Assembly (NCBI GenBank): GCA_003388555.1 | Contig: QQVD01000068.1 | Span: forward strand, 150,633 to 214,632 | Length of the DNA: 64,000 nt | Direction: 5' to 3' | DNA from: Acidobacteriota bacterium | GTDB taxonomy: Bacteria > Acidobacteriota > Thermoanaerobaculia > Multivoradales > Multivoraceae | Shown here: positions 5,455-59,562 of the stretch, in pieces | Position numbering within the stretch: position 1 is the first letter of the stretch | How the letters are laid out: each line of letters starts with the position of its first letter | Notes under the pieces: model-generated | What the model was told of the DNA's origin: nothing | The model's input: the letters and a program-made list of their open reading frames with translations, nothing else | Databases searched by the model: none | Position numbers and translations under genes: made by a program

Positions 5455-5486
5455 GGGTGACTGGGTGACTGGGTGACTGGGTGACT
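5455..5486. repeat. perfect tandem repeat (GGGTGACT)x4 in intergenic region
   Basis: gggtgact gggtgact gggtgact gggtgact read directly at 5455-5486, between the start of the VWA gene (5126) and the DUF4159 gene (5551). Confidence 0.9.
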
Positions 5487-5550
5487 GGACAGGTGAGCCG
5501 ACGGGGCGATGGTGGCGGACCGGATGCTCGCGGAGCCTCAGCGCGTCGCC

Positions 5551-6618
5551 TCAGTGAGTCATCGCATAGACGATGGCATTGACGCCGATCTGGTAGGCGT
5601 AGGTCGAATACTCGAGCGGATAAAAGGGGTCCTCGGCCCACTCCCAGGCGTCGCCGAGATCGCAGTTCCAGTTGATCAGCACCATCAGGCGACGGTCCTG
5701 GTCGAAGATGCCGCGCACGTGGGGGACGAAACCGTCCTTCTCGTGAGTCCTGCCGCCCCGCCGGCCGAGACCGACGTTGGGCACCTGGACGAGGGTCTCG
5801 ATGTCGTAGAAGCCATGGAAGATCGGGTGGTCCATGTCGACTTCCTCGATCGGAAACTCCGGCAGAACGAGCTGGAATTCCTCCTCCAGGCGCCGCCACT
5901 CGGCGCTGCCCCAGAAGTCGTCGATCATCAGGAAACCGCCACTCAGCAGGTAGTTGCGCAGCCCCTCGCGCTCGCTCGCGCGCAGCGTCATCTTGCCGAC
6001 CTCCACCGCGTAGAGGAACGGATACTCGCGCAGCCTCGGGTCGTCGAGCAGCACCGGGTTCTCGCAAGGGTAGTGATCGAGACGATCCATCAGGCGCTCG
6101 ACGCCGAGGAGGAACTGGCGATCGGCCTTCGGATAGTCGACGCTCCACGAGGCGTAGCCGAAGGTCTCGAAGCCCGAGTAGGCGGCGCGCGAGAAGTAGA
6201 ACTCGTAGGGAGAGCCCGAAGGCCGTCTTCGCGGCGGGCAGTCGTCCAGCCGCTCGCCGGGGTCGGGCGGCGACAGCGGCAGGGCGAAGGGGTCGTAGCC
6301 GGCGATCCGCTCGCGCACGCCGGTCGCCGGAACCGCCGCCGAGGCGTCCGGGTACCGTCTGGCGGGCAGGATCTCCCGTCGCTCGTCGACGCCGCGAGGC
6401 TGCGCCACGGGAGCGGCCGAGGCGAGCGTCGATGCGAGGGGCGATCGCGTCGCGATGGCGCCCGCCACCAGAGTCGCCAGGCCGATCGCACCCAGTCCCA
6501 GCGCCACGACGAGCGAGGTCGGCGGCGCGTTCTGCCGCGACCGCTGCCTCGGGGCCGGACGGCCGCGGCCGTCGTCACTGGGGCGCGAGGCCCTGTGGGG
6601 CGCTGTGCGAGAGGTCAT
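5551..6618 (-). CDS. DUF4159 domain protein (Bat/VWA-associated), membrane-anchored
   Basis: PFLYAVEVGKMTL...LRNYLLSGGFLMIDDFWGSAEW...MDHPIFHGFYDIETL matches the DUF4159 pattern. The ORF track start (6855) adds an Arg/Cys-rich extension. The ATG at 6616-6618 (MTSRTAPHR... then TM LVVALGLGAIGLATLVAGAIA) is preferred. Confidence 0.7.
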   Translation of the reverse strand: MTSRTAPHRASRPSDDGRGRPAPRQRSRQNAPPTSLVVALGLGAIGLATLVAGAIATRSPLASTLASAAPVAQPRGVDERREILPARRYPDASAAVPATGVRERIAGYDPFALPLSPPDPGERLDDCPPRRRPSGSPYEFYFSRAAYSGFETFGYASWSVDYPKADRQFLLGVERLMDRLDHYPCENPVLLDDPRLREYPFLYAVEVGKMTLRASEREGLRNYLLSGGFLMIDDFWGSAEWRRLEEEFQLVLPEFPIEEVDMDHPIFHGFYDIETLVQVPNVGLGRRGGRTHEKDGFVPHVRGIFDQDRRLMVLINWNCDLGDAWEWAEDPFYPLEYSTYAYQIGVNAIVYAMTH

Positions 6619-6821
6619 CACCTTGGCAGTCTCTACGATGCTACGTCGACTTGCGTTGCCGAGCGAAATCGGAGCAGAAAGCTCGGAACGCACGCAGTCG
6701 AGGAGAGGTTCGCGTTCGATCGCGTCTCGATGGTTTCGATCGCTCGTTCGTCCGTGTGCGGCGGCGGGCGGAACAGAGCCGGCGGCGGCTCCTCGCCGCC
6801 GGACGTAACATAGCGGGCAAC

Positions 6822-7730
6822 ATGGCTGGCGCGCCCGAGCTTCCCTTCCGTCCACGCACTTCGTCTGGCATCGCCAGGCCGATGCTGGCCGCCGCCTGGT
6901 CGCTGGGGCTCCTGGCCCTCGCGGCGTCGCTGTCGAGCCAGAGGCGGGACTTCGTGGCTCCGGACCATTTCGATCGGCGCCCCGACCTCGAGGCGCACGA
7001 GCCCGACGAGCGCGACAGCGGCTCCTGGTTCAGCTTCGCGCGCGCCCGCTACGACAGCGAAGGCGGCCCGATGGAGTCCTTCTACGTCTACGACGGCCGC
7101 CTGTGGGAGCGCTGGGAGACCGACCATCCGCAGGCCGACGAGAACTTCGCCTTCCGGCTCGGGGAGCTCACCAAGATCGAGGTCAACCGTCGCTCGATCG
7201 TGCTCCGGCTGACCGACCCGAGACTGTTCGACTTCCCCTTCCTCTACTTCTGCGACGTCGGTTGGATGCGGCTCGACGACGCCGAGGCGCAGGCCCTCGG
7301 CGAGTACCTGCGGCGGGGCGGCTTCCTCTGGGTCGACGATTTCTGGGGCGAGGCCGAGTGGCGCGCCTTCGAGCGCGCCATGCAGCGCGCCCTGCCCGAC
7401 ACGCCCTGGGTCGAGCTGCCGATGGACCATCCCATCCTGTCGACTCTCTTCCCGCTCGACGGCGTGCCGCAGATCCCGGCCCGCGACTTCGCCGAGTACA
7501 TGCCGCACGATCCGCCCGAGATCCACCGCCAGCCGGCCTGGGGCATCCAGCAGGTGCGGCTGCGCGGCTACCTCGGCGAGGACGGCAGGCTGCTCGCCGT
7601 GGCGACGCTGAACACCGACATCGGCGACGGCTGGGAGCGCGAGGCCTACGGTGAGTGGTTCTTCGAGCGCTTCTCGTCGCGAGCCTACGCGGCGGGCGCA
7701 AACATCGTGCTCTACGCCCTCACCCACTGA
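6822..7730 (+). CDS. DUF4159 domain protein, paralog of 5551..6618, divergently transcribed
   Basis: FPFLYFCDVGWMRLDDAEAQALGEYLRRGGFLWVDDFWGEAEWRAF...MDHPILSTLFPLDG, the same motif set as its neighbour. Start chosen at ATG 6822 (MAGAPELPF..., then signal/TM MLAAAWSLGLLALAASL); an alternative ATG lies at 6881. Confidence 0.7.
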   Translation: MAGAPELPFRPRTSSGIARPMLAAAWSLGLLALAASLSSQRRDFVAPDHFDRRPDLEAHEPDERDSGSWFSFARARYDSEGGPMESFYVYDGRLWERWETDHPQADENFAFRLGELTKIEVNRRSIVLRLTDPRLFDFPFLYFCDVGWMRLDDAEAQALGEYLRRGGFLWVDDFWGEAEWRAFERAMQRALPDTPWVELPMDHPILSTLFPLDGVPQIPARDFAEYMPHDPPEIHRQPAWGIQQVRLRGYLGEDGRLLAVATLNTDIGDGWEREAYGEWFFERFSSRAYAAGANIVLYALTH

Positions 7731-7836
7731 CGCCCTCGCCTACTGACGGCCTCACCACTGGCGGCCTGACCACAGGCGGCCGCCACCGGCGCCTCGCGTC
7801 GACGGTCCGGGCGGAGCCTGTCGCGGCAGCGCCCGC

Positions 7837-9342
7837 TCAACCGAGAGCGCCGCGCTCCGCCTCGGTGTACTTCTCCGCCGACGCCAGGGTGGCGCGCCCG
7901 AAGGCCCAGGAGCGGATCGCCTTCATCTGCTCGTGCATGGTCTTCGACAGGGCGACGAAGCTGCTGGTGCTGCGGGTCACGTCCGACATGACGAACGGCC
8001 GGCCCTCGCTGTAGGCGTCGACCCGAGCCGACACCACCGCCTGCTCGATCTCGGCGCCGTTCCACCCGCGCGACGCGATCGCCAGCACGTCGAGGTCGAA
8101 CTGGTCGGGATCGGCGCCGTTGCGCTCGAGGTGGATGCGGAAGATGTCGCGGCGCTCGTTGGGGGTCGGCAGGTCGACGAAGAACACCTGGTCGAAGCGG
8201 CCCTTGCGGATCACCTCCGCCGGCAGCGCTGCGATGCGGTTCGCCGTCGCGGCGACGAAGATCATCGGCGGCTTCTCCTGCATCCAGGTCAGGAACGACG
8301 AGAAGACGCCGGTGCTGCTCGCCACACCGCCCTCGTCGATACCGAGGCTGTTCTCGATCTCGTCAATCCACAGCACCGCCGGAGCCAGCGATTCGGCGGT
8401 GCGGGTGGCACGGTCGAACGACGCCTCGGGCGAGCCGAAGAGCCCCGAGCTGACGAGATTCATGTCGAGCCGGAAGAGCGGCACCTGCCAGAGCGAGGCC
8501 ACCGCCTTGGCCGCAAGGCTCTTGCCGCAGCCGCTCATGCCCATCACCAGCATGCCCTTGGGAGCCGGCAGACCCTCGGCGATCGCCTCTCGCGAGAACA
8601 GCTTCTGGCGCCGCTGCAGCCACTCCTTGAGGTTCTCGAGCCCGCCCACCTGGCCGAGCTCGACCTTCTGGGGCACGAACTCGAGCAGGCCGGCCTTGCG
8701 AACCGCGTCCTCCTTGTCCTTGAACACTTCGGCGAAGATGCGGTCGCTGCTCAGGCCACGGGTGCGGAACACCCGATTCAAGGTGTGGCGCGCCTGGTTG
8801 AGGCTGAGGCCCTTGAGCGCGAACCCGAGCTGACGCACGCCCTCCTCGTCGAGCGACTGGTTGCCGTAGCCCGAGCGCACCGAGTCGATCAGGCGGGTCA
8901 GCTCCTCGTCGGTGGGAAGCCCGTCGTCGACCACCTTGACCTCCCGCTCCAGCATCGCCGGAAGCGTGCGCAGCTCCGGAGCGGTGAAGAAGAGGTAGCG
9001 CTCCTTGCCGTAGAGCTGACCGTAGGCCTCGCGCACCGCACGCACCACCTGCGGCCGGTCGAAGAAGGCCGGCAGGTCGTGCAGCAGGAAGATCTTCGGC
9101 TCACTGCCGCGCACGACCCGCGTCACGGCGTGCACCGGATCCAGGGTGCGCTGCTCTGGCGGCTCGTCGTCGAAACCCTCGCAGCAGCTCCAGGAGACCA
9201 CGGCGAGCTGCTGGTCGCGCAACAGGCGGCCGCTGAAGTGCTGCAGGGCGCGGCGCACCCGCTGCTCCTCCCACGACACGACGAAGGCCACCGGGTGTTT
9301 GCCGAGGAAGGCCTGCCGCAGCTGATCGACCAGGTTCTCCAA
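7837..9342 (-). CDS. AAA family ATPase (single AAA+ domain with about 250-aa N-terminal domain; Ycf46-like architecture)
   Basis: Walker A GMLVMGMSGCGKSLAAKA, Walker B VLWIDEIE, and sensor-2 region (arginine-finger-like) VIRKGRFDQVFFVDLP. 501 aa. Confidence 0.8.
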   Translation of the reverse strand: MENLVDQLRQAFLGKHPVAFVVSWEEQRVRRALQHFSGRLLRDQQLAVVSWSCCEGFDDEPPEQRTLDPVHAVTRVVRGSEPKIFLLHDLPAFFDRPQVVRAVREAYGQLYGKERYLFFTAPELRTLPAMLEREVKVVDDGLPTDEELTRLIDSVRSGYGNQSLDEEGVRQLGFALKGLSLNQARHTLNRVFRTRGLSSDRIFAEVFKDKEDAVRKAGLLEFVPQKVELGQVGGLENLKEWLQRRQKLFSREAIAEGLPAPKGMLVMGMSGCGKSLAAKAVASLWQVPLFRLDMNLVSSGLFGSPEASFDRATRTAESLAPAVLWIDEIENSLGIDEGGVASSTGVFSSFLTWMQEKPPMIFVAATANRIAALPAEVIRKGRFDQVFFVDLPTPNERRDIFRIHLERNGADPDQFDLDVLAIASRGWNGAEIEQAVVSARVDAYSEGRPFVMSDVTRSTSSFVALSKTMHEQMKAIRSWAFGRATLASAEKYTEAERGALG

Positions 9343-9485: not shown

Positions 9486-10223
9486 TCAGCGGCGAGGCGG
9501 TGGCGCTTGCTGCGGCCTTGCTTCGGGGGGGCTCCACACCTCGGGCACGACTGCCCGTCCCGAGAAGCTCTCGACCAGCATGAAGATGAGGGCGTCGTCC
9601 TCGGCGCCGATCTGCGCCGTGAAGCCGGAGACCAGCCGGCCCAGGCTGTCGACCAGAGCGGCGAAGCGGAACTTCCAGGCTCCCTGCTCGCGGACGAACT
9701 CGTAGCTCAGCGGCTCGAGCCCCTCGGAGTCGAGCGGCAGACCCTGGGCGGTCAGGGCCTGCGCCATGGCGGCGTCACCGTCGACGCGCACCTCGCCGAT
9801 GGTCAGCTCGCCGAGAGTCTCCGGTGCCAGCCAGCCGGCCTGCATGGCGAGGTCGATCAGCTCGGCGAGGGTGATCTCCTGCAGCTGGCGCTCGTCGAGG
9901 GTGTGGCGCAGCGTGACCACCAGCAGACGGTCGACGAACGAGCGCCCGGAGAGCTCCTCGCGCGGGGCGGTGCGCGCCAGGCGCTTCAGCTCTTCGAGGT
10001 AGTCGAAGGTCTCAGCGTCGACCAGGGAGGCGGCGGCGGCGCCCTCGCCGGCCGCGAGCGCGTCACGGTAGCGCTCGAAGACCGAGCGCACCGCCGCCTC
10101 GTCGTCGGCCGACGCCGCCGTCGCGGATGCCGCCACCGAGAGCAGGACCAGCAGCCCGCCGACCGGCCACGCCAACGGCAGCGCCCGGCCCCGCCGCCGA
10201 GGCCACTCCGCTGCCCGGATCAC
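9486..10223 (-). CDS. hypothetical secreted protein
   Basis: C-terminal 245 aa of ORF 9486..10916. Begins at a GTG that overlaps the isochorismatase stop (GTGA at 10220-10223). Signal-like LPLAWPVGGLLVLLSVAASATAASA. Upstream part of the ORF track entry is antisense of 10220..10813. Confidence 0.4.
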   Translation of the reverse strand: MIRAAEWPRRRGRALPLAWPVGGLLVLLSVAASATAASADDEAAVRSVFERYRDALAAGEGAAAASLVDAETFDYLEELKRLARTAPREELSGRSFVDRLLVVTLRHTLDERQLQEITLAELIDLAMQAGWLAPETLGELTIGEVRVDGDAAMAQALTAQGLPLDSEGLEPLSYEFVREQGAWKFRFAALVDSLGRLVSGFTAQIGAEDDALIFMLVESFSGRAVVPEVWSPPEARPQQAPPPRR

Positions 10224-13089: not shown

Positions 13090-13292
13090 GGGTCTGGGAG
13101 GATCTTCGGTGCGTGGCCCGGGGTCTCGCGGTACGAGCGCCGTGCGTTCTTCGACGCTCCGCTGCGAGCGGCACCGCAGGCCCCCGGTCCGCGGCGCGGC
13201 TCCAGATCGTCGCGAATCGCCGAAGCGCCGGAGCGCCGGAGCGGCGGCGGGAGATGCCGCCCGTCGGAGCGCTCGCCGGGCGATGCCGGCGC

Positions 13293-13816: not shown

Positions 13817-14857
13817 CTATGCCGACTCGGCCTCAGAAGCCAGTCTCACCTCGCGCGCCAGCAGGTCGACCCGCGCCAGTGCCCGGTCCGCGTCGAGCCA
13901 TCGCACCCTCGGCGTGCCGCGGAACCAGGTGAGCTGACGCTTGGCATAGCGGCGGGTCTCACGCTCGATCCGCTGCCGCACCTCGGCGACCGGCAGCGAT
14001 CCCTCGAGACCGGCGACGATCTGGCGATAGCCGATCGCCTGGAAGGCAGCCGCTGACGGTGCGATCCCGGACCGCAGCAGATCGGCGACCTCCTCCTCCC
14101 ATCCGGCGTCGAACATCGCCTCCACACGGCCGGCGATCCGGCCGTAGAGCTCGACGCGCGGCAGCGTGACGCCAAAGCTGACCGCCGCCGCGACCGCCTG
14201 GCCCGCCGCAGCGCTCCAGCCGGCCAGGGGCGTGCCGGCGGGTTGGCGGTGGCCGGCCGAGCCGAGCCGACGGGCCTGCGCGACTGCCCCGGCCTCGACC
14301 AGCTCCAGCGCCCGCACGATGCGTTGACCGTCGGCGGCGGCGATCCGTTCGGCGCTCGCCGGGTCGCGCGAGCTCAGCTCGCGATGCAGCGCCGCGGCAC
14401 CTTCGCGGGCGAGGCGTGCCTTGAGCCGTCGACGCACGACCGCGGGCACGCGCGGCGTCGCGGCGAGGCCTGCGAAGAGGGCGCGGTGGTAGAGCCCCGA
14501 CCCACCCACGACGATGGCGACCCGGCCTCGTGCCGCGATCTCGTCGATGGCCGTGCGCGCCACCGCAGCGAAGGCTCCGGCAGAGAACGCCTGGTCGGGC
14601 TCGAGCAGGTCGATCAGGTGGTGAGGCGCCGCGCGTCGTTCCTCGGCGGTGGGCTTGGCGGTGCCGATGTCGAGTCGGCGGTAGGCCTGCAGCGCGTCGG
14701 CGTTGACGATCTCGGCGCCCAGGCGTGCGGCCAGCTCGATCGCCAGCCGGGTCTTTCCTGCCGCCGTCGGACCGACGATGGCGACCACGACGGGCCGCCG
14801 CGACCGGCGCTCACCGACTCGCTCGCTTCTCCCTGGCTTCGCTCGCACCTGTTGCAT
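13817..14857 (-). CDS. miaA: tRNA dimethylallyltransferase MiaA
   Basis: P-loop VVVAIVGPTAAGKTRLAIELA, DALQAYRRLDIGTAKP; classic miaA-hfq synteny. Start set at the internal ATG 14855-14857 (MQQVRAK...). The ORF track start 14932 would overlap comEC by 122 nt. Confidence 0.8.
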   Translation of the reverse strand: MQQVRAKPGRSERVGERRSRRPVVVAIVGPTAAGKTRLAIELAARLGAEIVNADALQAYRRLDIGTAKPTAEERRAAPHHLIDLLEPDQAFSAGAFAAVARTAIDEIAARGRVAIVVGGSGLYHRALFAGLAATPRVPAVVRRRLKARLAREGAAALHRELSSRDPASAERIAAADGQRIVRALELVEAGAVAQARRLGSAGHRQPAGTPLAGWSAAAGQAVAAAVSFGVTLPRVELYGRIAGRVEAMFDAGWEEEVADLLRSGIAPSAAAFQAIGYRQIVAGLEGSLPVAEVRQRIERETRRYAKRQLTWFRGTPRVRWLDADRALARVDLLAREVRLASEAESA

Positions 14858-17567: not shown

Positions 17568-17630
17568 GCCCAGGCAGAACGCCGCCGGCGCCGACCGACT
17601 GACGCCAACACGTCCCAGCCGCCTCCGGGA

Positions 17631-21879: not shown

Positions 21880-22164
21880 CTTGCTGTCGTCATCGTGCTG
21901 TCTCGTCGGCTCGTCTCGAGATCGGTCACCGCGGTGGTCGGAGCAGGCGGGCGTCGTCCAGGCACCTGGCTCGAGGCGAGGTCGGCCTGGCCACCGGGCG
22001 ACCTCGGGCCGGCCGGCGAGCGCCTCGGGCGACGTCGCCGCCACCCTCCGCGAGCCGCCGGCGCCGAGTCTACGAATCGCGCCACACGACCGCGCCAGGA
22101 CGCGCCAGGCGCGACCTCTCGGCGGAGGGTATGCAGCGGCGCCTCGATCGTTCGCGTCGCCGCG

Positions 22165-27214: not shown

Positions 27215-27243
27215 TTGCACGCCGCAACGGACTGAGCTATGCT
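27215..27243 (+). promoter_or_regulatory. candidate sigma70-type promoter (TTGCAC-17-TATGCT)
   Basis: -35 TTGCAC at 27215-27220, a 17-nt spacer, -10 TATGCT at 27238-27243. It lies about 50 nt upstream of the terminator hairpin; pattern match only. Confidence 0.3.
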
Positions 27244-27294
27244 GCTTGACGCTTGCCCGCGTCCCACCAGGAGGCGTGCAGGCGAAGCTCAGAA

Positions 27295-27321
27295 GTGGGT
27301 TTCCAGCCCACTTTTTTTATT
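27295..27321 (+). terminator. Rho-independent terminator (7-bp GC stem, 3-nt loop, T7 tract)
   Basis: GTGGGTT-TCC-AGCCCAC followed by TTTTTTTATT, read directly. It is very conspicuous in a 70% GC genome. Confidence 0.7.
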
Positions 27322-35575: not shown

Positions 35576-35580
35576 TCGAC

Positions 35581-49781: not shown

Positions 49782-50813
49782 TCAGACGGTTCGCTCGACG
49801 AACCGACTCTCGATCCAGCCCCGCTCGCCGTCGGGCAGAGCGATCAGGATCCAGTCGCCCCGCTCCTCCAGCGCCCGCACCTCGGTGCCGGCGTGGAGCT
49901 TGAATCGCACCACGCCCGAGGCCTCTGGTGCGGTGCGCGCGTCGACCTGCGGCGCCAGCACGACGGCCACCGAGGCCCCGCGCCACCAGTCGAACGCCAG
50001 CGAGGCCAGCATCGCGATCAGCACGACTCCGCCGACCGCCGCGAGCCAGCGCCGCGTCGCCGCAGCCCGCCGCAGCAGGACCAGGGCGATCGCCGACCAG
50101 AACGCGAGTCCGGCCACCACCGCGATCCAGATCCGCTCGACGCGGCTGAAGCCGAAGTGCCAGAAGACGAGCGTCCGCGGTACGGCGCCGGGATCGGGAG
50201 CGGCGATGGCGTCGCGTGCCGAGGTGCGCGCGAACTGGAGATTCGCCAACACGTCCTCGTCGCGAGGCGCCAGCGAACGGGCCCGGCGGTACGCCGCGAT
50301 GGCGCCGCCCAGCTCGCCGCTGCGCAGCAGCGCGTTGCCCAGGTTGTACTGAGCGGAGGCGTTCTCCGGCCCGATCTCGGCCAGCTGTCGGAAACGCGAG
50401 ACGGCGAGACCGTACTCGCCCGACTCGTACGCCTGCACCGCCTCGCCGAACAGGGTCGCCGGATCGGGATCCGCGGCCGTCTCCTGGCGACCCGCGCCTG
50501 GCGGCTGCAGCGAGCCACCGGCGTCGCCGCCGACCTCGCCGCGCTCCGGTCCCGACGTCGCCGAGGGAGTGTCGGGCTCCATCCCTTCGGCCTCTCCGGC
50601 CTCTCCCTCGACCGGCGCGGCGGCACCGCCGATGCGTAGCGGCTCCTCGCTCGGCTCCTGCCCGACCAGCGCGGAAGCCGGCGTCGTCGGAGCCAACGCC
50701 GTCAGCATGCCGGCCGACAGCGCCGCGAGCAGGACGAGCACCCTCCTGCGGTCGTCGCCGGCGACGACCTGCGTGATCACCCGCGACATCACCCGATGCA
50801 TACCTCGGGGCAT
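49782..50813 (-). CDS. batE: BatE-like protein (TPR repeats, two TM, C-terminal SH3-like domain)
   Basis: TPR (AQYNLGNALLRSGELGGAIAAYRRARSLAP), TM segments, C-terminal GTEVRALEERGDWILIALPDGERGWI (SH3b-like). TGATG stop-start junction with batD. Confidence 0.7.
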   Translation of the reverse strand: MPRGMHRVMSRVITQVVAGDDRRRVLVLLAALSAGMLTALAPTTPASALVGQEPSEEPLRIGGAAAPVEGEAGEAEGMEPDTPSATSGPERGEVGGDAGGSLQPPGAGRQETAADPDPATLFGEAVQAYESGEYGLAVSRFRQLAEIGPENASAQYNLGNALLRSGELGGAIAAYRRARSLAPRDEDVLANLQFARTSARDAIAAPDPGAVPRTLVFWHFGFSRVERIWIAVVAGLAFWSAIALVLLRRAAATRRWLAAVGGVVLIAMLASLAFDWWRGASVAVVLAPQVDARTAPEASGVVRFKLHAGTEVRALEERGDWILIALPDGERGWIESRFVERTV

Positions 50814-52621
50814 CACCTGCGGCCCCGCCTGGCGGAGAGCTCCGCGTCGAGAGTGGTGACCAGCTGGTCGAGGTTCTTGACGATCCGATCCCGCTGCAGG
50901 TTGCGGTCGCTGGCAGCACCGTACTGGGCGGCGTCGAGTCGGTCGAAGAGCTCTCGCACCCGCCGCACGGTGGCGTCGGTCGCCGCAGTCTCGCGCAGCG
51001 CCGCCTCCACCTCGGCGGTGGTCAGCGAAGAGCCCTCGAGATCCAGCTTGTCGCCGACGTAGTGGCGAAGACAACGCGAACAGCGCTCGATCAGGATCTC
51101 GGGATCGTGACGTGCCTCGGCGTCTTCGGCGAGATCGCGAAGGGTGCGACGCGCCACGCGCAGGGCGCCCTGACGGCGGCGCAGGCCCCGGTCCTGTGCG
51201 AATCGCGACTCGCGGCGCGCCCACAGCCAGAGGGCGAAGACCGCCAGCGGAGGCAGCGCGAACCCGAGCGCGGCCACCGGCGCCCTCCAGCCGTCGAGCC
51301 CACCGGGGCGCAGCGAGCGGAGTCCACGATGGAGGGGGAGGATGTCGTCGGCGAGGATCTTCACCGCGACCTTGCCGGTGGTCGGCGCCACCGACTCGGT
51401 CAGCATCAGATCCTCGCGGCCCTCTCCCGGGACGACGTCGAGGGTCAGCGCCGTCGTCGTCTTGACCCGGAACTCCTCGGCGGCTGGATCGAAGTAGACG
51501 AGCCGCAGCGGCGCGACTTCGGTCTCGCCCGGCTGCAGGGGGACCAGCGCCGAGCGGAAGGTCTTGCTGCCCGAGAGGCCGCCTTCGGCACGTTCGATAC
51601 GGCTGGACGGTTTGTCGTCATAGACCTTGAAGCCCTGCAACTCGGGCAGCTCGGGAGGTCCGATCATCTGGACGTTGCCGCGACCGCTCACCGTCACCGC
51701 GAAGGTGGCGGACTCGCCGACGGCCACCTGCGCTCGAGCCAGCGAAGCGTCGATGTCGAAGTCTCCCACCAGCCCACGGAAGCCCGGCGGCGCCGGAGGC
51801 AGCGGCAGCACCTCGAGCTCGAGCGGGCGCGAGCGCAGCGACCTCGGCTCCATCGCCACCCTGCCGAAGTCGAACACGCTGCGCGAGCGGCGCGAGCGCA
51901 CGGCGACCTGGAAGGAGAGCACCGACGGCGGAATGACCACCGGCCCGGGTCGCTGTGGGAAGAGCGCCTTGCGGATCTCGTTGACCAGGTACTCGACGCC
52001 GTTCTCGGTGGTGCGGAACTCGCGCACGTCGCCCAGGTTCTCGGCCACCAGGTCGCCGAAACTCATCTCCTCGAGCTGAGCGTCGGCCACCTGGACCCGG
52101 CGGTAGAAGCGCCACACGTAGACCACCTGCTGGCCGACGTAGGGCCGCTCCTCGGAGATCGAGACGGTGACGAAGGTGTCGCGGTCGTCCTCCGCCGCCG
52201 GCGCCTCGTCGTCCGCCAGCACCCGGATCCTGATCGGTTCGGTCTCCAGCGTCTCGCCCTCGACCTCGAGGCTGACCGGACCGATCACGAACTCGCCTGG
52301 TTCGCGCGCGGTCAGGTAGTAGGTGTAGCTCAGGCTGGCCGACATCTTGTTGTTCACCAGAGAGACCTGCTGCCCGACCGGCCCGGCCTGGGCGCGGAAG
52401 GCGGAGAGGTCCGGGAGACGCGGCCGGGCTCCGGCCACGTCCCAGGTCCGCACGGTCAGCTCGATCGGCCGGCCGAGGGTGGTCTGGTTGCGGTCGACCG
52501 TCGCCTGGATGCGCTGCGCCGAGACCGCGTCGGCGATCGCCAGGGCGCTCAACAACGCGCCGGCCAGGCGCGACAGCCGGCGCCTGGATTCGGCAGCGGA
52601 GCGTGTCGCGCGGTGGCTCAC
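50813..52621 (-). CDS. batD: BatD (oxygen tolerance) family protein
   Basis: Signal peptide, long beta-rich periplasmic region, C-terminal TM plus coiled coil; Bat operon position. GTG start in a GTGA overlap with the batC stop. Confidence 0.75.
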   Translation of the reverse strand: MSHRATRSAAESRRRLSRLAGALLSALAIADAVSAQRIQATVDRNQTTLGRPIELTVRTWDVAGARPRLPDLSAFRAQAGPVGQQVSLVNNKMSASLSYTYYLTAREPGEFVIGPVSLEVEGETLETEPIRIRVLADDEAPAAEDDRDTFVTVSISEERPYVGQQVVYVWRFYRRVQVADAQLEEMSFGDLVAENLGDVREFRTTENGVEYLVNEIRKALFPQRPGPVVIPPSVLSFQVAVRSRRSRSVFDFGRVAMEPRSLRSRPLELEVLPLPPAPPGFRGLVGDFDIDASLARAQVAVGESATFAVTVSGRGNVQMIGPPELPELQGFKVYDDKPSSRIERAEGGLSGSKTFRSALVPLQPGETEVAPLRLVYFDPAAEEFRVKTTTALTLDVVPGEGREDLMLTESVAPTTGKVAVKILADDILPLHRGLRSLRPGGLDGWRAPVAALGFALPPLAVFALWLWARRESRFAQDRGLRRRQGALRVARRTLRDLAEDAEARHDPEILIERCSRCLRHYVGDKLDLEGSSLTTAEVEAALRETAATDATVRRVRELFDRLDAAQYGAASDRNLQRDRIVKNLDQLVTTLDAELSARRGRR

Positions 52622-53601
52622 CAGTCCTTCTCCTGGCGCAGCTGGCCGGCGCGCGCCCGGCGCTCGCCGGCGGGTCGCTCCTCCTGCAGCGCCTGCAGGA
52701 AGCGCTGCGCCTCCTCGGGCGTCATCCCGGCTGGCTCCGACGACTGCGGCCGGCCGTCACCCTGGCGCGGCTCGGAAGGCTCCGACTGCGGCGGATCGGG
52801 CTGGTTGGGGTCGGTCTCGCCGGGATCGACGCGGCCGTTGCGGTTGGCGTCCTCCTCACCGTCGAGGCGGCCGTCGCCGTCGCTGTCCGGATTGCTCGGG
52901 TCGGTGGGGTTCTCGGCGCTGCGCTCCTGCTCGTCGGACAGGCCGTCCTCGTCTTCGTCGGCTCCCGGAGCGCCGTCGGAAGAGGACTCGCTGTGGTCGG
53001 GCGCTCCGTCGGCCTCGGAGTCGTCTCGTTCCTGCTCGCCACCGCCGGCTTGCGGGGCGTCGCCGCGCTGCTCCGCGTCCGAGTCCTGATCACCGCCGTC
53101 CTGCTCCTGGTCCTGGTCCTGGTCCTGGCCGCCGTCCTGGTTCTGCTGCTGCTCCTCGAGGCGACGCTGCACGACCTCCAGGTTGTGTTTTGCATCGACG
53201 TCGCCCGGCGCCAGGTCGAGTGCCTGCAGGAAGAGCTGCTCCGCCTCGGCAAGACGGCCGGCCCGGAACGCCGCATTGCCGAGGTTGTACAGCGCCTCGG
53301 AGCGCAGGTCGGCTTCGCCCGCCTCCTCCGCTGCCTTCGCAGCGCTCTGGTAGCTCTGAGTCGCCGCATCGAGCTGCCCGAGCTTGTAGCGGGCGCTGCC
53401 CAGGTTGAGATCGATGAGCGGCTCGTCGGGACGTTCGCTCTTCCAACGCTCGAAACCGCGGAGCGCCTCTTCGTACCTCTGCTCGCGGTAGGCCTCGACC
53501 GGATCATTCGCCGCCTGGCCAGCCAGCGGAGCAGCGAGCAGAACGACCAGGGCCGAGACCCGGAAGAACCGCGACAGCGGCGTTCGCACCGCGCCGTTCA
53601 C
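52618..53601 (-). CDS. batC: BatC-like TPR protein with highly acidic low-complexity C-terminal half
   Basis: Signal peptide, TPR (EALYNLGNAAFRAGRLAEAEQLFLQALDLAP), then a D/E/Q/G-rich tail. GTG start in a GTGA overlap with the batB stop. Confidence 0.7.
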   Translation of the reverse strand: MNGAVRTPLSRFFRVSALVVLLAAPLAGQAANDPVEAYREQRYEEALRGFERWKSERPDEPLIDLNLGSARYKLGQLDAATQSYQSAAKAAEEAGEADLRSEALYNLGNAAFRAGRLAEAEQLFLQALDLAPGDVDAKHNLEVVQRRLEEQQQNQDGGQDQDQDQEQDGGDQDSDAEQRGDAPQAGGGEQERDDSEADGAPDHSESSSDGAPGADEDEDGLSDEQERSAENPTDPSNPDSDGDGRLDGEEDANRNGRVDPGETDPNQPDPPQSEPSEPRQGDGRPQSSEPAGMTPEEAQRFLQALQEERPAGERRARAGQLRQEKDW

Positions 53602-54764
53602 GAGCCGATCTCCTCGGCCAGGTGCGGCGCGCGGTTCAGCGACCGACGTTCGGCGATCGACGCCTCGACGAGGAGCAGCACGATGGCCGCACCGACCAGC
53701 CACTGAAAGCGCTCCTTCCAGCGCCGTTGGCGCGTCGTGCCCAGATCCTGATCCTGCATCGTCGCCTTGATCCCCAACGAGTACACCTGCTCCAGGTCGA
53801 CGTCACCGGTCACCGAGCGCACATACCGACCGCCCGTCGCCAGCGCGATGCGCTGCAGGGTCGGCTCGTCGAGCCGACTGAGGATGATCTCTCCTCTCGC
53901 GTCGCGCCGGAAGCCGCCGCCCGGATCGGGGATCGGCGACCCTTCCTCGCGTCCGATGCCGATGGTGAAGATTCGGATCCCGGCGGCGGCCGCCTCCTCC
54001 GCTGCCGCTACGGCCTGACCGAGATGATCTTCGCCATCGGTCATCAGGACGATCGCCTTGGAGGTGCTCGAGCTCTCCTCGAACGCCTCCACCGACGTGC
54101 GGATCGCCTGCGCGAGCGCCGTGCCCTTCACCGGGATGAGGTCGGGCTCCAGCGAGTCGAGGAAGATTTCGGCGGCGCCGTAGTCGAGGGTCAGCGGGCA
54201 CTCCAGGAAAGCCGTTCCGGCGAACGCGACGAGCCCGATGCGATCGCCCTCGAGCAGCGCCAGGAGATCGCTGATCTCGCGCTTGGCGCGCTCGAGGCGC
54301 GACAGCGATCCTCCGGCTTCGGTGTCGCCCACCAACATCGAGTCGGAGACGTCCAGAGCGACCACGATGTCGACGCCGCGGCGGCGGATCTCCTCCCATT
54401 CGAATCCCATCTCGAACCCCGCCAGTGAGATCAGCAGAGCGAGCACCGCAAGCACCTGGAGCGTCGCCTTCACGCGGCGCCGGGCGGCGCTGTGGCCCGG
54501 CAGCAGCTGGCCGAGGAGGTGCTCGTCGGCGAACCGCTGCAGCGCGCGCCGCCTGGCGGCGCCGGCCCAGACGAAGAAGGCGACCAGCAGCGGCACCACC
54601 CACAGCAGCCACAACGCTCCCGGCCGCTGGATGCGGGCGTCGGCGCAACCGACGAGCAGCGGCACGGCCACCAACGCCAGCGTCTGGACGACGGTTCTCG
54701 GCTCGGGCCGTCGCCGAGGGCCGAACGCGCCGTTGCCGTCGCGGGATCTGCGGATGACGATCAC
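53598..54764 (-). CDS. batB: BatB (VWA domain) protein
   Basis: Two N-terminal TM, VWA (IVVALDVSDSM ... IVLMTDGED ... GIRIFTIGIG), C-terminal TM. Real start GTG 54762-54764 (GTGA overlap with batA). The ORF-track 5' extension is antisense/Arg-rich. Confidence 0.75.
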   Translation of the reverse strand: MIVIRRSRDGNGAFGPRRRPEPRTVVQTLALVAVPLLVGCADARIQRPGALWLLWVVPLLVAFFVWAGAARRRALQRFADEHLLGQLLPGHSAARRRVKATLQVLAVLALLISLAGFEMGFEWEEIRRRGVDIVVALDVSDSMLVGDTEAGGSLSRLERAKREISDLLALLEGDRIGLVAFAGTAFLECPLTLDYGAAEIFLDSLEPDLIPVKGTALAQAIRTSVEAFEESSSTSKAIVLMTDGEDHLGQAVAAAEEAAAAGIRIFTIGIGREEGSPIPDPGGGFRRDARGEIILSRLDEPTLQRIALATGGRYVRSVTGDVDLEQVYSLGIKATMQDQDLGTTRQRRWKERFQWLVGAAIVLLLVEASIAERRSLNRAPHLAEEIGS

Positions 54765-55798
54765 GGCAGGGTCCTCAACCGGGTATTCAGCAGCACCATT
54801 TCCAGCACCAGGAGGAGCAGCGCCGGCACCACCAGCCACGGGTACTCCTCGTCGTACTCCATGAACGACTCCATGGTGATCTCGGTGCGCTCGAGCTCGT
54901 CGATCTGGGCGTAGATCTCTGCCAGCGCCCCCTCGTCCTCGGCCCGGAAGTACGCGCCGCCGGTGCGTTCGGCCATCGCGGTCAGCGTCTCCTCGTCGAT
55001 CTCGACGTTCTCGTACACCGGCCGCGGCCCGAGCCGGGTCTCGACCAGGAAGGGTGCCTCGCCTCGGGTGCCGGCGCCGATGGCGTAGATCTTGACGCCC
55101 AACGTCGCGGCGATCTCGGCCGCGGTCAGCGGGCTCAGGCTGCCGGCGTTGCTGCGCCCGTCGGTCAGCAGCACGACGACCTTCGACGTCGCCTCCGAGT
55201 CCTGCAGACGCTTCACCGCTGTGCCGACCGCGGATCCGATCGCCGTCGCGTCCCCGGCCATGCCGATCTCCAGCCGCTCGAGGAAGGTCTTGAGGATCCC
55301 GTGATCGAGCGTCAACGGGCACTGGGTGAACGCGTTCTCGCCGAACACGACCAGTCCGATCTGATCGTTGACGCGAGCATCGACGAACTCCTCGACGACG
55401 TCCTTCGCGACTTCGAGACGGTTGCGACGGCGCACCAGGGATCGCTCGTCTGCGTCGAGATCGAGCGCCTGCATGCTGCCCGAGGTGTCCATCACCAGCA
55501 CGATGTCGATCCCCTCGGTGCTCACTTCGGTGAGCTTGCGCCCGGTCTGCGGGCGCAGCAGCGCGACGAGCAGCAGCAACAGCACCAACCAGCGCAGGGC
55601 AGCGACGGCGCGACGCATCCAGAGCGTCGGCGAGCGACGCAGATGGCGCACGTGATGCAGGCTCGAGAAGCGCACCGCGGCAGGCCTCGCCCGGCGGCTC
55701 CACCAGCGCCGGGCCAGGACCAGCAGCGCCCAGGTCAGCAGCGCCGGACCGAGGTAGGCGAGCATCCAGAGATCGGCGAAGTGCAGGGAACCGTTCAT
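54761..55798 (-). CDS. batA: BatA (aerotolerance regulator N-terminal domain + VWA)
   Basis: BatA_N-like TM region; VWA (IVLVMDTSGSM ... VVVLLTDGRSN ... KIYAIGAG). ATGA overlap with the upstream gene. Confidence 0.85.
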   Translation of the reverse strand: MNGSLHFADLWMLAYLGPALLTWALLVLARRWWSRRARPAAVRFSSLHHVRHLRRSPTLWMRRAVAALRWLVLLLLLVALLRPQTGRKLTEVSTEGIDIVLVMDTSGSMQALDLDADERSLVRRRNRLEVAKDVVEEFVDARVNDQIGLVVFGENAFTQCPLTLDHGILKTFLERLEIGMAGDATAIGSAVGTAVKRLQDSEATSKVVVLLTDGRSNAGSLSPLTAAEIAATLGVKIYAIGAGTRGEAPFLVETRLGPRPVYENVEIDEETLTAMAERTGGAYFRAEDEGALAEIYAQIDELERTEITMESFMEYDEEYPWLVVPALLLLVLEMVLLNTRLRTLP

Positions 55799-57075
55799 CG
55801 GCTGGAGTGCTCCCCCTCTCCGCGGGCGGCGGAGGGCGACCCTCCCGGCTCGTCGGGCGGCGACAGGCGCGACGACCCGCCGTTCGCGGCCGCCGGGCCC
55901 TCTGCCTCGGGCTGGCTCGCGTCAGCCGCCGCCCCGACCTGCGGCAGCGTGCTCTCGACGAAGCCGACGGCTGCCTCCCAGGTCTGCTCGATCTCGGACC
56001 TGGCCGGCACCTGGGCCGCGTACTTGACCCTGTCGGTCTCGGACAGGAAGGCGGCGAGCCGGCGCTGCAGCGCCGAGCCCAGGTTCAGCGTGCGCACCCT
56101 GGCGAGGATCTCCTCGCTCGTCAGGTCGGTGGCGTTCACCACGAACCGCCGTTCGATGTACTCGCGCAGGACTCCGGAGAGGGAGAAGTAGTAGGTGCGT
56201 AGCTCGTCGAGATCGACGAATTCGCTGCGGCGCAGCTCCTCGAGCCTGGCGAAGGCCCACTCGTGGGCGCTCATCTGCCGCTCCTCGGAGGCCGCGCGTG
56301 CCTCTTCGAGCCTCCTGCGGCGCGCGACCCGCAGCACTGCGATCAGCAGCAGCGCACCGGCGGCCGCCAGCAGCACCGCCCGCCACCACCACGGATCGCG
56401 CAGCTCGCGGACCGGCTTGACGTCACGGATGTCCAGTTCGGCGACGTCCGTCGGCAGCACCGAGGTCACCTCCAGCCGGCGCGCTTCGGACCTCGCAGCG
56501 GCCGCGGCCTCCTGCCCGACGTCCTCGCCCACCTCGGCGACGACCGCCGGCAGCTCCCAGGTGCCGACCCGGGTAGGCCGCAGCACAAGCTCGACGCGCT
56601 GCAGCAGACGTCCCCCCGGCAGCTCGTCGAGCCGCTGGCGACGCTCGAGGACCGGCACCCCGGCCAGGCGTTCCTCGGTCGGGAGTCTGCCCGACGCATC
56701 GCCCGACGCAGCGCCCGACGAAGCGCCCGACGGATCGCGCGCACCGTCGCCCGGGGAATCGACCAGCGGCGGCAGCTGCGCCTCGACGCCCGGATCCCGC
56801 TCGAGCTCGACGACGTAGGTGAAGCGGTCTCCGATCGTGCCGGTGGCCGGCTCGAGCGCGCTGCGCACCTCGATCGGCGGCGGCGGCCCCGAGACGTCAC
56901 GCGGCGAATCGCCGGCCCGCTCACCGCCGCAGGCGGCGCAGGTGGCGACCAGCGCGGCGAACGCCACGAGGGCCGCGGCGCGCGACCTGGGGCAGCGCCG
57001 GCCGACGGCCCGATGGCGGCGGCCACCGTCGCGCGGCGGCGCCGAACCGTCGCGAATCGATTCAGGCGCGTTCAC
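55795..57075 (-). CDS. hypothetical lipoprotein/membrane protein occupying the third position of the Bat operon (DUF4381-like position; family not verified)
   Basis: Signal plus Cys (LVATCAACGG), internal TM (WWWRAVLLAAAGALLLIAVL), helical C-terminus. Start tentatively GTG 57073-57075 (9 nt after the DUF58 stop); an alternative ATG at 57183 would overlap the DUF58 gene by 122 nt. Confidence 0.5.
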   Translation of the reverse strand: MNAPESIRDGSAPPRDGGRRHRAVGRRCPRSRAAALVAFAALVATCAACGGERAGDSPRDVSGPPPPIEVRSALEPATGTIGDRFTYVVELERDPGVEAQLPPLVDSPGDGARDPSGASSGAASGDASGRLPTEERLAGVPVLERRQRLDELPGGRLLQRVELVLRPTRVGTWELPAVVAEVGEDVGQEAAAAARSEARRLEVTSVLPTDVAELDIRDVKPVRELRDPWWWRAVLLAAAGALLLIAVLRVARRRRLEEARAASEERQMSAHEWAFARLEELRRSEFVDLDELRTYYFSLSGVLREYIERRFVVNATDLTSEEILARVRTLNLGSALQRRLAAFLSETDRVKYAAQVPARSEIEQTWEAAVGFVESTLPQVGAAADASQPEAEGPAAANGGSSRLSPPDEPGGSPSAARGEGEHSSR

Positions 57076-58069
57076 GGGAACGGAAGAAGCGGACGATGGT
57101 GTCGACGTACGGCTCGCCGGCCGAGACCCGGATCTGTCCGACACCGGCGGCGCGGAAGAGGTCGCGAAGACGGTTCGCCTCATCGCGATGGAGAGACGCG
57201 AGCTGCTCTCGCACCCGACGATCCGAGCTGTCGATGCGCAACACCTCGCCCGTCTCGGCGTCCTCCAGCTCGATCAGACCGATCGACGGCAGCTCGGCCT
57301 CGCGACGATCCGAGATCGACACGGCGGTGAGGTCGTGACGTCTCGCGGCGATCTTCAGCCGGTCGTCGAAGCCGCGGTCGAGGAAGTCCGAGATGACGAA
57401 CGAGACGACCCGGCGCCGCGCCACCTTGGTGAGGAACTCGAGCGCTCCCTGCAGGTCGGTGGCGTGGCCCTCAGGCTCGAAGTTGAGGATCTCGCGGATC
57501 ACCCGCCACACGTGCGAGCGGCCCTTCTTCGGCGGTATGTACTTCTCCACCGCATCCGAGAAGAGCACCAGGCCGACTCGGTCGTTGCTGTGCACCGCGA
57601 CGTAGGCGAGCACCGCGGCGATCTCCGCCGCGACCTCGTTCTTGAGCTGACCCCGACTGCCGAAAGCGCCCGAAGCGCTGACGTCGACCAGCAGCATCAC
57701 CGTCAGCTCGCGTTCCTCGCGATGCTCCTTGACGAAGGGCGCGTTCATCCGCGCGGTGACGTTCCAGTCGATGTGGCGGATGTCGTCACCGGGCTGGTAC
57801 TCGCGCACCTGCTCGAACTCCATGCCGCGCCCCTTGAAGGCGCTCTCGTACTCCCCAGCCATGGCGTCCGTCACCAGGCGCTGGGTGCGGATCTGGATCT
57901 GCTTGATCTTCTGGAACAGCTCTCCCTGCAGCACCTCCACCGGCTCGCGCTCGCGTCGCACGCTGCGGCGCCGGGCGAGCAGGGCCTCGCCGACCTGGGA
58001 GCCATCGACGATCGCCGGCGACCGGCGCGGTGACCGGTTCGGCGAGACGTCTCTGTTACCGCTCACCAC
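57062..58069 (-). CDS. DUF58 domain protein (MoxR-associated, VWA-like)
   Basis: EFEQVREYQPGDDIRHIDWNVTAR...LTVMLLVDVSASGAFGS matches the DUF58 signature. Immediately downstream of moxR. Confidence 0.85.
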   Translation of the reverse strand: MVSGNRDVSPNRSPRRSPAIVDGSQVGEALLARRRSVRREREPVEVLQGELFQKIKQIQIRTQRLVTDAMAGEYESAFKGRGMEFEQVREYQPGDDIRHIDWNVTARMNAPFVKEHREERELTVMLLVDVSASGAFGSRGQLKNEVAAEIAAVLAYVAVHSNDRVGLVLFSDAVEKYIPPKKGRSHVWRVIREILNFEPEGHATDLQGALEFLTKVARRRVVSFVISDFLDRGFDDRLKIAARRHDLTAVSISDRREAELPSIGLIELEDAETGEVLRIDSSDRRVREQLASLHRDEANRLRDLFRAAGVGQIRVSAGEPYVDTIVRFFRSRERA

Positions 58070-58078
58070 GCCCCGTCC

Positions 58079-59068
58079 TCACGGAACGTCGACGGTGTTG
58101 AAGATCTCGAGGATCAGCTCTTCGGAGGTCAGCTCCTGGGCCTCGGCCTCGTACGAGAGCAGCACGCGGTGGCGCAGCACGTCGAGCCCGACGTTCTTGA
58201 CGTCCTGCGGGGTCACGTACGCCCTGCCGGCGAGGAAGGCCTGCGCCTTGGCGGCCCGTGCCAGGTAGATGGTGGCGCGCGGCGACGCCCCGTACTCGAT
58301 CAGGCGCTCGAAACGCTCCAGCCCGACCTTCTCCGGCTGGCGGGTCGCGAACACCAGCTCGACGATGTAGTCCTCGACCTTGGCGTCGACGTAGACCGCG
58401 TCCGCCACGTCGCGGGCACGGCGCACCTCGTCGAGATCGACCACCGGCTCGACGCGCGGCTGCTCGCGCCTGGACATCCGGCGCATGATCTCCCGCTCGT
58501 CCTCCCGCGACGGATAGTCGACACGCAGCTTGAGCATGAAGCGATCGACCTGCGCCTCGGGAAGCGGATAGGTGCCTTCCTGTTCGATCGGGTTCTGGGT
58601 CGCCAGCACCAGGAAGGGGTCGGGCAGGCGGTGGCTACGGTCGCCGAGCGTCACCTGACGCTCCTGCATCGCCTCGAGAAGGGCGCTCTGCACCTTCGCC
58701 GGCGCGCGGTTGATCTCGTCGGCGAGCAGCAGGTTGGCGAAGATCGGCCCCTGCTTGACCACGAACTGATGGTCCTGGGGACGATAGATCTGGGTGCCGA
58801 CGAGATCGGCGGGGAGCAGGTCGGGCGTGAACTGGATGCGCGAGAAGTCGGCGTGCACCGCTGCCGCGAGACTGCGGATGCCGGTCGTCTTCGCCAGGCC
58901 GGGGATCCCCTCGAGCAGGATGTGCCCGTCGGCGACCAGCGCCAGCAGCAGCCGCTCGACCATGATGCCCTGGCCGACGAGCACCTTGCCGACCTCGCTG
59001 CGGACCCGCTGCAGCGCCGGCACGAGGGCGTCGATCTCCGGTTTCAGTTCTTCGACGGTCTTGTTCAT
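58079..59068 (-). CDS. moxR: MoxR-family AAA+ ATPase
   Basis: GHILLEGIPGLAKTT (Walker A), LLADEINRA (Walker B), and the sensor region VLATQNPIEQEGTYPLPEAQVDRF, typical MoxR. Confidence 0.9.
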   Translation of the reverse strand: MNKTVEELKPEIDALVPALQRVRSEVGKVLVGQGIMVERLLLALVADGHILLEGIPGLAKTTGIRSLAAAVHADFSRIQFTPDLLPADLVGTQIYRPQDHQFVVKQGPIFANLLLADEINRAPAKVQSALLEAMQERQVTLGDRSHRLPDPFLVLATQNPIEQEGTYPLPEAQVDRFMLKLRVDYPSREDEREIMRRMSRREQPRVEPVVDLDEVRRARDVADAVYVDAKVEDYIVELVFATRQPEKVGLERFERLIEYGASPRATIYLARAAKAQAFLAGRAYVTPQDVKNVGLDVLRHRVLLSYEAEAQELTSEELILEIFNTVDVP

Positions 59069-59534
59069 GGGGTTGGGTGCTCCGGGAGTCTCGTACGTCG
59101 CGCCATCAGCGGCGCCGACGTGCCGCGGGCCGACGCCCCGGGGACGCGCGGCACGGACGGTGGCGAGAGCTTCGGTTCGAGGAGGGGATCGCGGGTGCGG
59201 TTCGCGAATGCTCTGTGCAGACCCGTCGGGGCGGAGAGCGAAGGGAGTGTGGACGGTAGATGGTCGGTGGAGGGCCGTTTCACCGGGCCTTGGCCGGCAC
59301 CCCGAGACGGGCCGAACGCACCGCCGTCGTCACTCGGCCTCCCCTGCGCCGGACCAACGAACGGCGATGCGGCCTTGTTCCCTCGGCGTTCCCTCGCGGC
59401 CGGCGCCGGTCCGCCGCCCGGAGCCCGCTCGCAGACCGAGCGATCTCGGCGCAGACCGGCAGGCGGAGTCGCCGTCGGGTCGCCGCAGGACGGCGCGCAG
59501 TCTAGCAACGAGGAGCGGTCAGTCGACGCCGTCG

Positions 59535-59562
59535 CCGAGGTCCGAGGTCCGAGGTCCGAGGT
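59535..59562. repeat. perfect tandem heptamer (CCGAGGT)x4
   Basis: ccgaggt ccgaggt ccgaggt ccgaggt, read directly. It lies in the 713-nt divergent intergenic region between moxR and the sigma54 activator gene. Confidence 0.9.

Follow-up and report, generated by a model that had tools for sequence, protein, structure and literature searches.

Short tandem repeat arrays in a Thermoanaerobaculia genome: probable independent, lineage-specific duplications

Introduction

Short DNA units repeated head to tail in the spacers between genes are known from several bacterial lineages, and here we examine such arrays in a 64-kb stretch of DNA (hereafter the window; 70% G+C) from an uncultured bacterium of the Acidobacteriota, class Thermoanaerobaculia. 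In Cyanobacteria, the short tandemly repeated repetitive (STRR) sequences are tandem units of 7 bp in intergenic regions, with several units per genome and an unknown function (PMC2670836). TAACTGA direct repeats occur in marine Beggiatoaceae and in some Cyanobacteria and Bacteroidetes, where 2-6 copies stand in spacers, also beside ribosomal-protein genes; this one dominant unit accounts for 169 sets in a single genome, in most cases placed a few nucleotides ahead of a start and in forward orientation, and close relatives of the heptamer-repeat-bearing Bacteroidetes have shorter intergenic regions without repeats (MacGregor 2015, PMC4679880). A 2025 survey found short tandem repeats (STRs) to be enriched in intergenic DNA, with the exception of tri- and hexanucleotide units, found 6-9 bp units (a subset) to be enriched in prokaryotic phyla, and described STRs as indel hotspots in bacteria (PMC12699852).

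In the literature searched, nothing comparable has been described for Thermoanaerobaculia or Acidobacteriota. Repeats also belong to systems of a quite different build. The contingency loci of Neisseria, Haemophilus and Moraxella have higher copy numbers than the arrays discussed here and known length variation, and they lie in the promoter cores or reading frames of surface or restriction-modification genes. Iterons and regulator-binding arrays are phased at ~10-11 or 21-22 bp and are conserved beside the regulated gene or the origin. CRISPR arrays alternate 24-48 nt repeats with unique spacers of about the same length, and cas genes usually lie close by.

The initial annotation of the window had listed short repeats at five loci and treated them as a family of perfect arrays at gene boundaries. 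Our analysis leads us to consider them, in all probability, independent, young and lineage-specific tandem duplications (micro- or minisatellites, akin to long simple sequence repeats (LSSRs) and to STRR sequences) that constitute neither one family nor a dedicated system.

Results

Arrays were detected with Tandem Repeats Finder (TRF) plus an exact period scan, and the sequence of the five listed loci was read directly. An array was called perfect when a unit of 4-15 nt was repeated in at least 3 copies over at least 20 nt. The window holds 4 perfect arrays versus 0.01 in 200 dinucleotide-preserving shuffles of the same sequence; the arrays are real and not an effect of composition. A baseline taken from real genomes, namely 80 diverse bacterial infB loci amounting to 1.40 Mb, contained 14 perfect arrays, or 0.64 per 64 kb (Poisson P=0.004 for the 4 of the window), and the density in other bacterial loci ranged over about 0.5-0.64 per 64 kb. 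At ~6-8x the real-genome baseline, the density in the window is indeed uncommon, as had been claimed, for a stretch that was chosen because of its arrays and is thus a selected, not a random, one. The 14.4 kb of the same genome immediately outside the window contained no such array.

The position of the arrays is also far from uniform. The public-record gene calls assign 89.3% of the window to coding and 10.7% to intergenic DNA. Within this small intergenic fraction lie 12 of the 39 TRF arrays scoring at least 40 (P=5e-4), 8 of the 15 strongest TRF arrays (P=6e-5) and 3 of the 4 perfect arrays, which confirms, for the window, the suspected intergenic enrichment. The arrays inside genes mostly respect the reading frame: 21 of the 26 have a period divisible by 3, versus 5 of 13 spacer arrays (Fisher P=0.013). 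Both biases are the pattern that selection on a uniform duplication process would be expected to leave, they agree with the published survey (PMC12699852), and an excess in spacers alone need not signal a function.

The arrays at the five listed loci, in window positions, are as follows.

Locus 1, 5454-5488: perfect 8-mer TGGGTGAC x4.4 (TRF, period scan)
Locus 2, 14857-14901, minus strand: imperfect 9-mer x5, 88% matches (TRF, gene calls, translation)
Locus 3a, 27624-27654: perfect 9-mer CGCATGACC x3.4, in the htrA/rimP divergent spacer
Locus 3b, 27657-27685: three CTGAAGC cores in units of ~9-10 nt, 80% matches, adjoining locus 3a
Locus 4, 35572-35645: degenerate 10-mer (..GACCGAC..) x7.4, 75% matches
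Locus 5, 59535-59562: perfect 7-mer CCGAGGT x4.0

Tandem repeats were therefore present at all five loci, no more than 3 nt from where they had first been placed. Their description as perfect holds for three of the six arrays (TGGGTGAC, CGCATGACC and CCGAGGT), and those at 14857-14901, 27657-27685 and 35572-35645 are imperfect. Four of the five loci lie in gene flanks; the exception is locus 2, which falls within the last 30 codons of comEC (stop 14811), is in frame and encodes PIEPIEPSE within ..PTEPIEPIEPSESID..; the miaA start (14788) follows 69 nt downstream.

Locus 1 occupies a 424-nt spacer that runs from a DUF4159 gene (stop 5551, minus strand) to a gene for a 762-aa GATase1-like protein (start 5126, minus strand). 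The array stands 63 nt beyond the DUF4159 stop and 328 nt ahead of the next start, and it is identical in L083, L084, L085 and L096-L098. The gene context first proposed for it was a spurious plus-strand open reading frame (ORF), the real neighbours being on the minus strand. The probable rimP ATG (27852) follows ~200 nt downstream of locus 3a, and locus 5 lies in a divergent spacer of 713 nt between moxR (start 59068, minus strand) and an ntrC-like regulator gene (start 59782, plus strand). Locus 4 stretches from the truB stop codon to a point 194 nt short of rpsO, with a better-kept core at 35584-35620 (x3.7, 92% matches). Between 35573 and 35645 there are five TGA triplets spaced ~10 nt apart, the first of which is the truB stop codon itself, so that stop codons follow truB in all three frames; this suggests that the decamer array grew through duplication of the stop-codon region.

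The units do not make up a family. Those of the listed arrays measure 8, 9, 9, ~9-10, 10 and 7 nt, are unrelated to one another, and each forms one array only in the 64 kb and the 14 kb of flanks, with single copies at or below expectation. No inverted partner arrays or hairpins occur within the window, and RNA folding of the arrays on the transcribed strand was no better than that of shuffles (z -0.97 to +1.2; -0.97 at locus 2). A search of the entire window at the Rfam gathering threshold was negative, as was one of 26555-27851 at E<=1, and no tRNA was found. No sigma-70 promoter or intrinsic terminator coincides with an array, nor is there a promoter-like hexamer pair at any of them; the sole terminator-like site, 27291-27315, is not an array. 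A CRISPR array, which had been set aside from the start, is ruled out: the units are too short at 7-10 nt, contiguous and without spacers, and there are no cas genes or cas-like domains among the gene calls of the window.

We then compared orthologous spacers. Among species-representative genomes, the best IF-2 matches were an Acidobacteriota and a Thermoanaerobaculia metagenome-assembled genome (MAG) at 59-61% identity, a distance at which spacers are unalignable, and closer syntenic relatives were obtained via exact-protein look-ups. The nearest named homologues of S15 and MoxR belong to Thermoanaerobaculia. The gene order htrA, rimP, nusA, infB, DUF503, rbfA, DHH, truB, rpsO, pnp, response regulators and hsp33 onward is common to the window and the relatives.

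The arrays did not follow this shared order. The decamer array is absent from the truB-rpsO spacer of all five relatives, L100 (S15 92% identical), L101 and L102 (87%), L103 (79%) and L105 (78%), in which the spacer measures 128-149 nt versus 263 nt in the window. Conservation there is limited to the last ~70 nt before rpsO, including window 35785-35838, a block that comprises an TGTGCTAA..T box (probably an extended -10), a purine-rich (GAA)n leader, the GAAGGAG ribosome-binding site and the TTG start of S15. The CCGAGGT array is absent from the moxR-upstream spacers of L106 (MoxR 81% identical) and L107 (77%), to which the corresponding spacer of the window shows no similarity at all. The htrA-rimP arrays, including locus 3a, are not conserved in L103 or L105; the sole block common with L103 is a terminator hairpin at 27292-27322 (91% identical), which is not an array. 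Summed over the syntenic block, spacers amount to 2636 nt in the window versus 1791 nt in L103 and 1139 nt in L105. The missing arrays, the absence of spacer similarity and the shorter spacers of the relatives together indicate that the arrays sit in fast-evolving, expanded and unconstrained DNA.

The hairpin belongs to a separate element of the 1.3-kb htrA/rimP spacer. At 27214-27322, on the plus strand, a sigma-70-like promoter (TTGCAC, 17 nt, TATGCT) stands ~50 nt ahead of a strong intrinsic terminator whose hairpin carries a T-tract (27291-27315 plus TTTTTTTATT), without an Rfam match. This is a candidate small RNA of ~75 nt or a candidate leader attenuator of the rimP-nusA-infB operon. 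At this position E. coli carries the metY tRNA.

The relatives have arrays of their own at other sites. In 118 kb of unselected relatives there were 6 perfect arrays, where the non-relative baseline predicts 0.95 (P=5e-4; with clustered arrays counted once, P=0.016). The genome of L103 and L107 has a perfect 13-mer x3 and a perfect 15-mer x3 in other spacers; L003, L105 and L106 have no perfect arrays. These differing arrays suggest a tendency of the lineage and not the conservation of one element.

Another relative with arrays of its own is L004, a Thermoanaerobaculia MAG, with clusters of heptamer and octamer arrays at 3144-3323 and 9854-9980 that form inverted pairs and could fold into long hairpins. 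GGGAGTC/GGGGGTC arrays face their reverse complement, and GGGTTGCT x4 faces AGCAACCC x10 just upstream of infB. In the same MAG a related 16-mer is repeated directly after three stop codons, a 21-mer x14.8 stands at the contig end, and repeats also lie at 2259-2302, 4870-4910, 8209-8243 and 15510-15820.

At least eight arrays similar to the listed ones had been overlooked in the window. Three of them are at 21869-21902, 21975-22028 and 33060-33089, and the others are given below.

7714-7781: 15-16-mer x4.4, 83% matches, spanning a DUF4159 stop (7730) and the convergent spacer
13213-13243: 8-mer CGAAGCGC x3.9, 91% matches, in the spacer just past hfq (stop 13293, minus strand), upstream of a 474-aa gene
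26622-26657: 12-mer TGCTCTGACTCG x3, 87% matches, 68-103 nt upstream of the htrA start (26554, minus strand)
26962-26988: perfect 13-mer CACTTCCCGGAGA x2.1, in the htrA/rimP spacer
27780-27814: 12-mer x2.9, 82% matches, within the called rimP N-terminal extension

The last of these is probably non-coding. The public rimP call (TTG 27714, 213 aa) is ~60 aa longer than the RimP of the syntenic L103 and L105 (151-154 aa), and both proteins align from the window ATG 27852 onward, which points to this ATG as the true start.

Two separate Bat/MoxR-type clusters flank the region (window 1-7730 and 49782-59068; L083 15127-22289). One is composed of MoxR, DUF58, VWA, VWA, TPR, BatD and TPR-SH3 genes; the other has DUF4159 paralogues and the GATase1-like protein, with MoxR, DUF58 and BatA just beyond the window.

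Discussion

We favor the reading that the arrays are independent and recent duplications, and a simple course of events would account for them. A chance duplication of 7-15 nt would arise in a spacer, and replication slippage on the two copies would then add units, up to 3-7. The arrays that are still perfect (loci 1, 3a and 5) would be recent, and the degenerate ones (loci 2, 3b and 4) older and decaying by point mutation. The same duplication process would act everywhere, with selection purging out-of-frame or disruptive arrays from genes, and the survivors would gather in weakly constrained spacers or in tolerant protein tails where they are in frame, as in comEC, nusA and the TPR protein. 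The unusually long spacers of this genome may give arrays more room, and the arrays may in turn lengthen the spacers. Slipped-strand synthesis, which the initial annotation had named as one possible origin, appears to be the best explanation for how the arrays were generated, and they seem to be selectively neutral; the length variation that would go with a slippage hotspot was not seen.

This last result is the first of several that weigh against our interpretation. Copy number was compared in seven assemblies: ENA ERZ869936, 38, 40 and 42, Logan SRR7515930 and SRR7515931, and NCBI GCA_003385675.1. They stem from different samples and assemblers, yet represent one near-clonal population, and their consensus hides minor alleles. 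The window is identical to part of ERZ869936 NODE_40 and 99.98% identical to GCA_003385675.1 contig QQUW01000018.1. At 99.8-100% identity and without gaps, the seven assemblies (L001, L002 and L083-L099 were compared) showed 0 indels at any array locus, so the arrays did not prove to be hotspots in the sense of an observed polymorphism; active slippage might be expected to give length variants.

Further points of this kind concern the choice of units. The pure (TGGGTGAC)x4 32-mer matched 90 JGI metagenome stretches, of which 80 loci were retrieved and are covered by the following figures. The array recurs in these 80 loci of unrelated organisms, with a GC content of 29-75% and 4-14 copies, and their contigs hold 10 perfect arrays per 64 kb, 20x the baseline. 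Units of 7 or 8 nt make up 71 of the 80 other perfect arrays on those contigs, and a GGTGA core is present in 20 of 74 other units (6-10 nt) versus 1.4 expected, which hints that the choice of unit is not fully random. Composition-matched control octamers gave 0, 1, 0 and 0 matches in a viral collection, a comparison that provides no base rate for 'any octamer x4'. In the window itself, TGAC occurs in 4 of 11 spacer units versus 0.95 expected (P=0.007, uncorrected, for a motif picked post hoc). As an answer to whether the units share a motif this is suggestive; a rough hand calculation for any shared 4-mer among the six listed units gave ~0.14.

The GC-diverse 80 loci, the 20x density and the GGTGA and TGAC counts would also fit a different account, in which the arrays are a cross-phylum class of 7-8 nt intergenic repeats with GGTGA(C)/RTGAC-core units, made or spread by a dedicated mechanism and not by generic slippage. 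Candidates for such a mechanism are an enzyme-driven process, a horizontally transmitted one and a shared binding factor. We regard this account as unlikely. If it were true, Thermoanaerobaculia would be a new host lineage beside Cyanobacteria, Beggiatoaceae, Bacteroidetes and Chloroflexaceae, and a non-random recurrence of 7-8 nt units would bear on the sporadic yet massive amplification of heptamers and octamers in few bacterial lineages.

Two of the metagenome loci deserve a separate description. L115 (JGI Ga0209591_10006746, 12.7 kb, 70% GC, Chloroflexaceae) contains nine perfect arrays with 7-, 8- and 14-nt units, among them GTCACCCA x4.9 and x6.8 and GTCACCTT x3.8, and filamentous anoxygenic phototrophs may be another array-rich lineage. 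L180 (JGI Ga0247841_10026958, 6.2 kb, 41% GC) has eleven separate TGGGTGAC arrays of 3-11 copies; it comes from a low-GC organism with a massive amplification of the octamer, and 14 loci from its sample carry the TGGGTGAC array.

It is equally improbable, in our view, that the arrays are functional cis-elements, that is, repeated binding sites of a transcriptional or post-transcriptional regulator acting on rimP-nusA-infB, rpsO and moxR/ntrC-like genes. The arrays do lie in spacers that bear promoters or leaders, the 10-nt period of locus 4 equals one helical turn, and the TGAC-containing spacer units as well as the GGTGA-core unit family of other array-rich organisms speak for it; a regulatory role has been proposed for the comparable TAACTGA repeat of Beggiatoaceae (MacGregor 2015, PMC4679880). 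The protein-binding arrays suggested by the initial annotation were, however, not borne out: no tested array is kept in the orthologous spacers of syntenic relatives, the closest included, and units and periods (7, 8, 9 and 10 nt) vary by locus without a common helical phasing. The arrays stand 190-470 nt from start codons or just beyond stops, not at ribosome-binding sites, and lack RNA structure. Of the metagenome TGGGTGAC arrays, 83% are intergenic, and the 80 loci show no strand bias relative to genes (25 vs 32 upstream, 29 vs 30 downstream).

Phase variation, in which high-rate slippage switches or tunes neighboring promoters, seems to us more doubtful still. Three perfect arrays (7, 8 and 9 nt) are found in spacers that must hold promoters, and the indel-prone nature of bacterial STRs (PMC12699852) agrees with such a role. 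An indirect hint of heterogeneity comes from Logan SRR7515931, assembled with k=31: locus 1 is the break point of two contigs, both of which terminate in pure array over exactly 30 nt (k-1), so that the sample must contain, at this or another place, an array no shorter than 38 nt. Since the TGGGTGAC array is common in metagenomes, this break need not mean a longer allele, and the graph branch is equally explicable by another organism; a search of JGI metagenomes with the locus 1 flank junction, which would reveal other alleles, gave 0 matches, and the species is absent from that collection. The copy numbers are low (3-4.4), no indel was seen at any locus of the seven assemblies, the neighbors are housekeeping genes and not surface, restriction-modification or virulence genes, and the arrays are distant from any -35/-10-like element. 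Where substitutions between assemblies cluster, they do so away from these loci, within or next to low-complexity repeats of coding sequence (the acidic tail of nusA; 53049/53058).

At the first of these sites, the nusA acidic C-terminal tail of L091 (30012-30101, from the low-coverage ERZ869940) carries 20 clustered substitutions without gaps, which shift the nusA stop (565 aa versus 528 aa); this is either a real coding-repeat variant or a mis-assembly. Positions 53049 and 53058, beside a coding QDQDQD hexamer array, differ in five loci from three other assemblies.

A structural role of the nucleic acid itself is very unlikely. It would involve a G-quadruplex on the template strand of locus 1, or C-rich, G-poor transcripts of loci 1 and 3a that serve as Rho (rut) sites after stops or in leaders. 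The window contains only 3 canonical G3N5 quadruplex motifs, all of them intergenic, and (GGGTGACT)4 is one. On the transcribed strand, C and G make up 51% and 11% of locus 1 and 45% and 23% of locus 3a, and both loci have less structure than their shuffled versions (z = +0.44 and +1.2). Nevertheless, this account fits at most 2 of the 6 arrays, the tested arrays are not conserved, and it sits poorly with the balanced orientation of the metagenome loci. An enrichment of quadruplex motifs is ruled out, with 3 observed vs 6.2 +/- 2.6 expected.

An assembly or sequencing artefact is hardly credible: although the source is a MAG and one Logan assembly breaks at locus 1, the copy numbers are identical in ERZ869936/38/40/42, Logan SRR7515930 and GCA_003385675.1, with differing assemblers and samples, and arrays of 28-74 nt are each spanned by a single short read.

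Taken as independent duplications, the arrays have uses of their own. They are candidate variable-number tandem repeat (VNTR) markers for strain typing of the uncultured Thermoanaerobaculia population, with a modest practical value. They mark the unconstrained parts of spacers and by contrast show the conserved rpsO promoter/leader and the terminator hairpin upstream of rimP. They also warn annotators of spurious ORFs and starts, as at the rimP N-terminus and the plus-strand ORF at locus 1.

Comparison with known systems

The arrays compare best with the simple sequence repeats (SSRs), LSSRs and VNTRs of prokaryotes. They share with them the head-to-tail arrangement without spacers, units mostly of 7-10 nt, intergenic enrichment, in-frame periods where coding, a sporadic distribution among lineages and a presumed origin by slippage. 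Like these, they exceed what composition predicts and are lineage-specific, being absent at orthologous sites. They differ in being low-copy (3-7), and the seven near-clonal assemblies gave no length variants, the graph break at locus 1 being the one indirect hint of any.

With the cyanobacterial STRR sequences they have in common short tandem units in intergenic regions and the presence of several differing units. STRR units, however, recur at many loci and often form hairpins, whereas those of the window are single-array and without inverted partners; hairpin-forming inverted arrays of the STRR kind are confined to the relative L004. Heptamers underlie just 2 of the 6 listed arrays, namely locus 5 and the CTGAAGC cores, and the host belongs to another phylum. 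The likeness to TAACTGA repeats lies in the short direct repeats in spacers, the shorter, repeat-free spacers of relatives and the sporadic occurrence across phyla, over which TGGGTGAC likewise recurs; the window units differ in being all distinct, far from starts and without an orientation rule.

The remaining systems are less similar. Contingency loci also have short tandem repeats in promoter-containing spacers, but the arrays of the window are low-copy, lie near housekeeping and regulatory genes, have no promoter hexamers and yielded no length variants. A helical period like that of iterons or regulator-binding arrays is seen at locus 4 alone (10 nt), an array that all five relatives lack. 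The best-supported conclusion is that Thermoanaerobaculia newly join the host lineages of an element type already known, that of long SSRs, STRR sequences and TAACTGA-type repeats.

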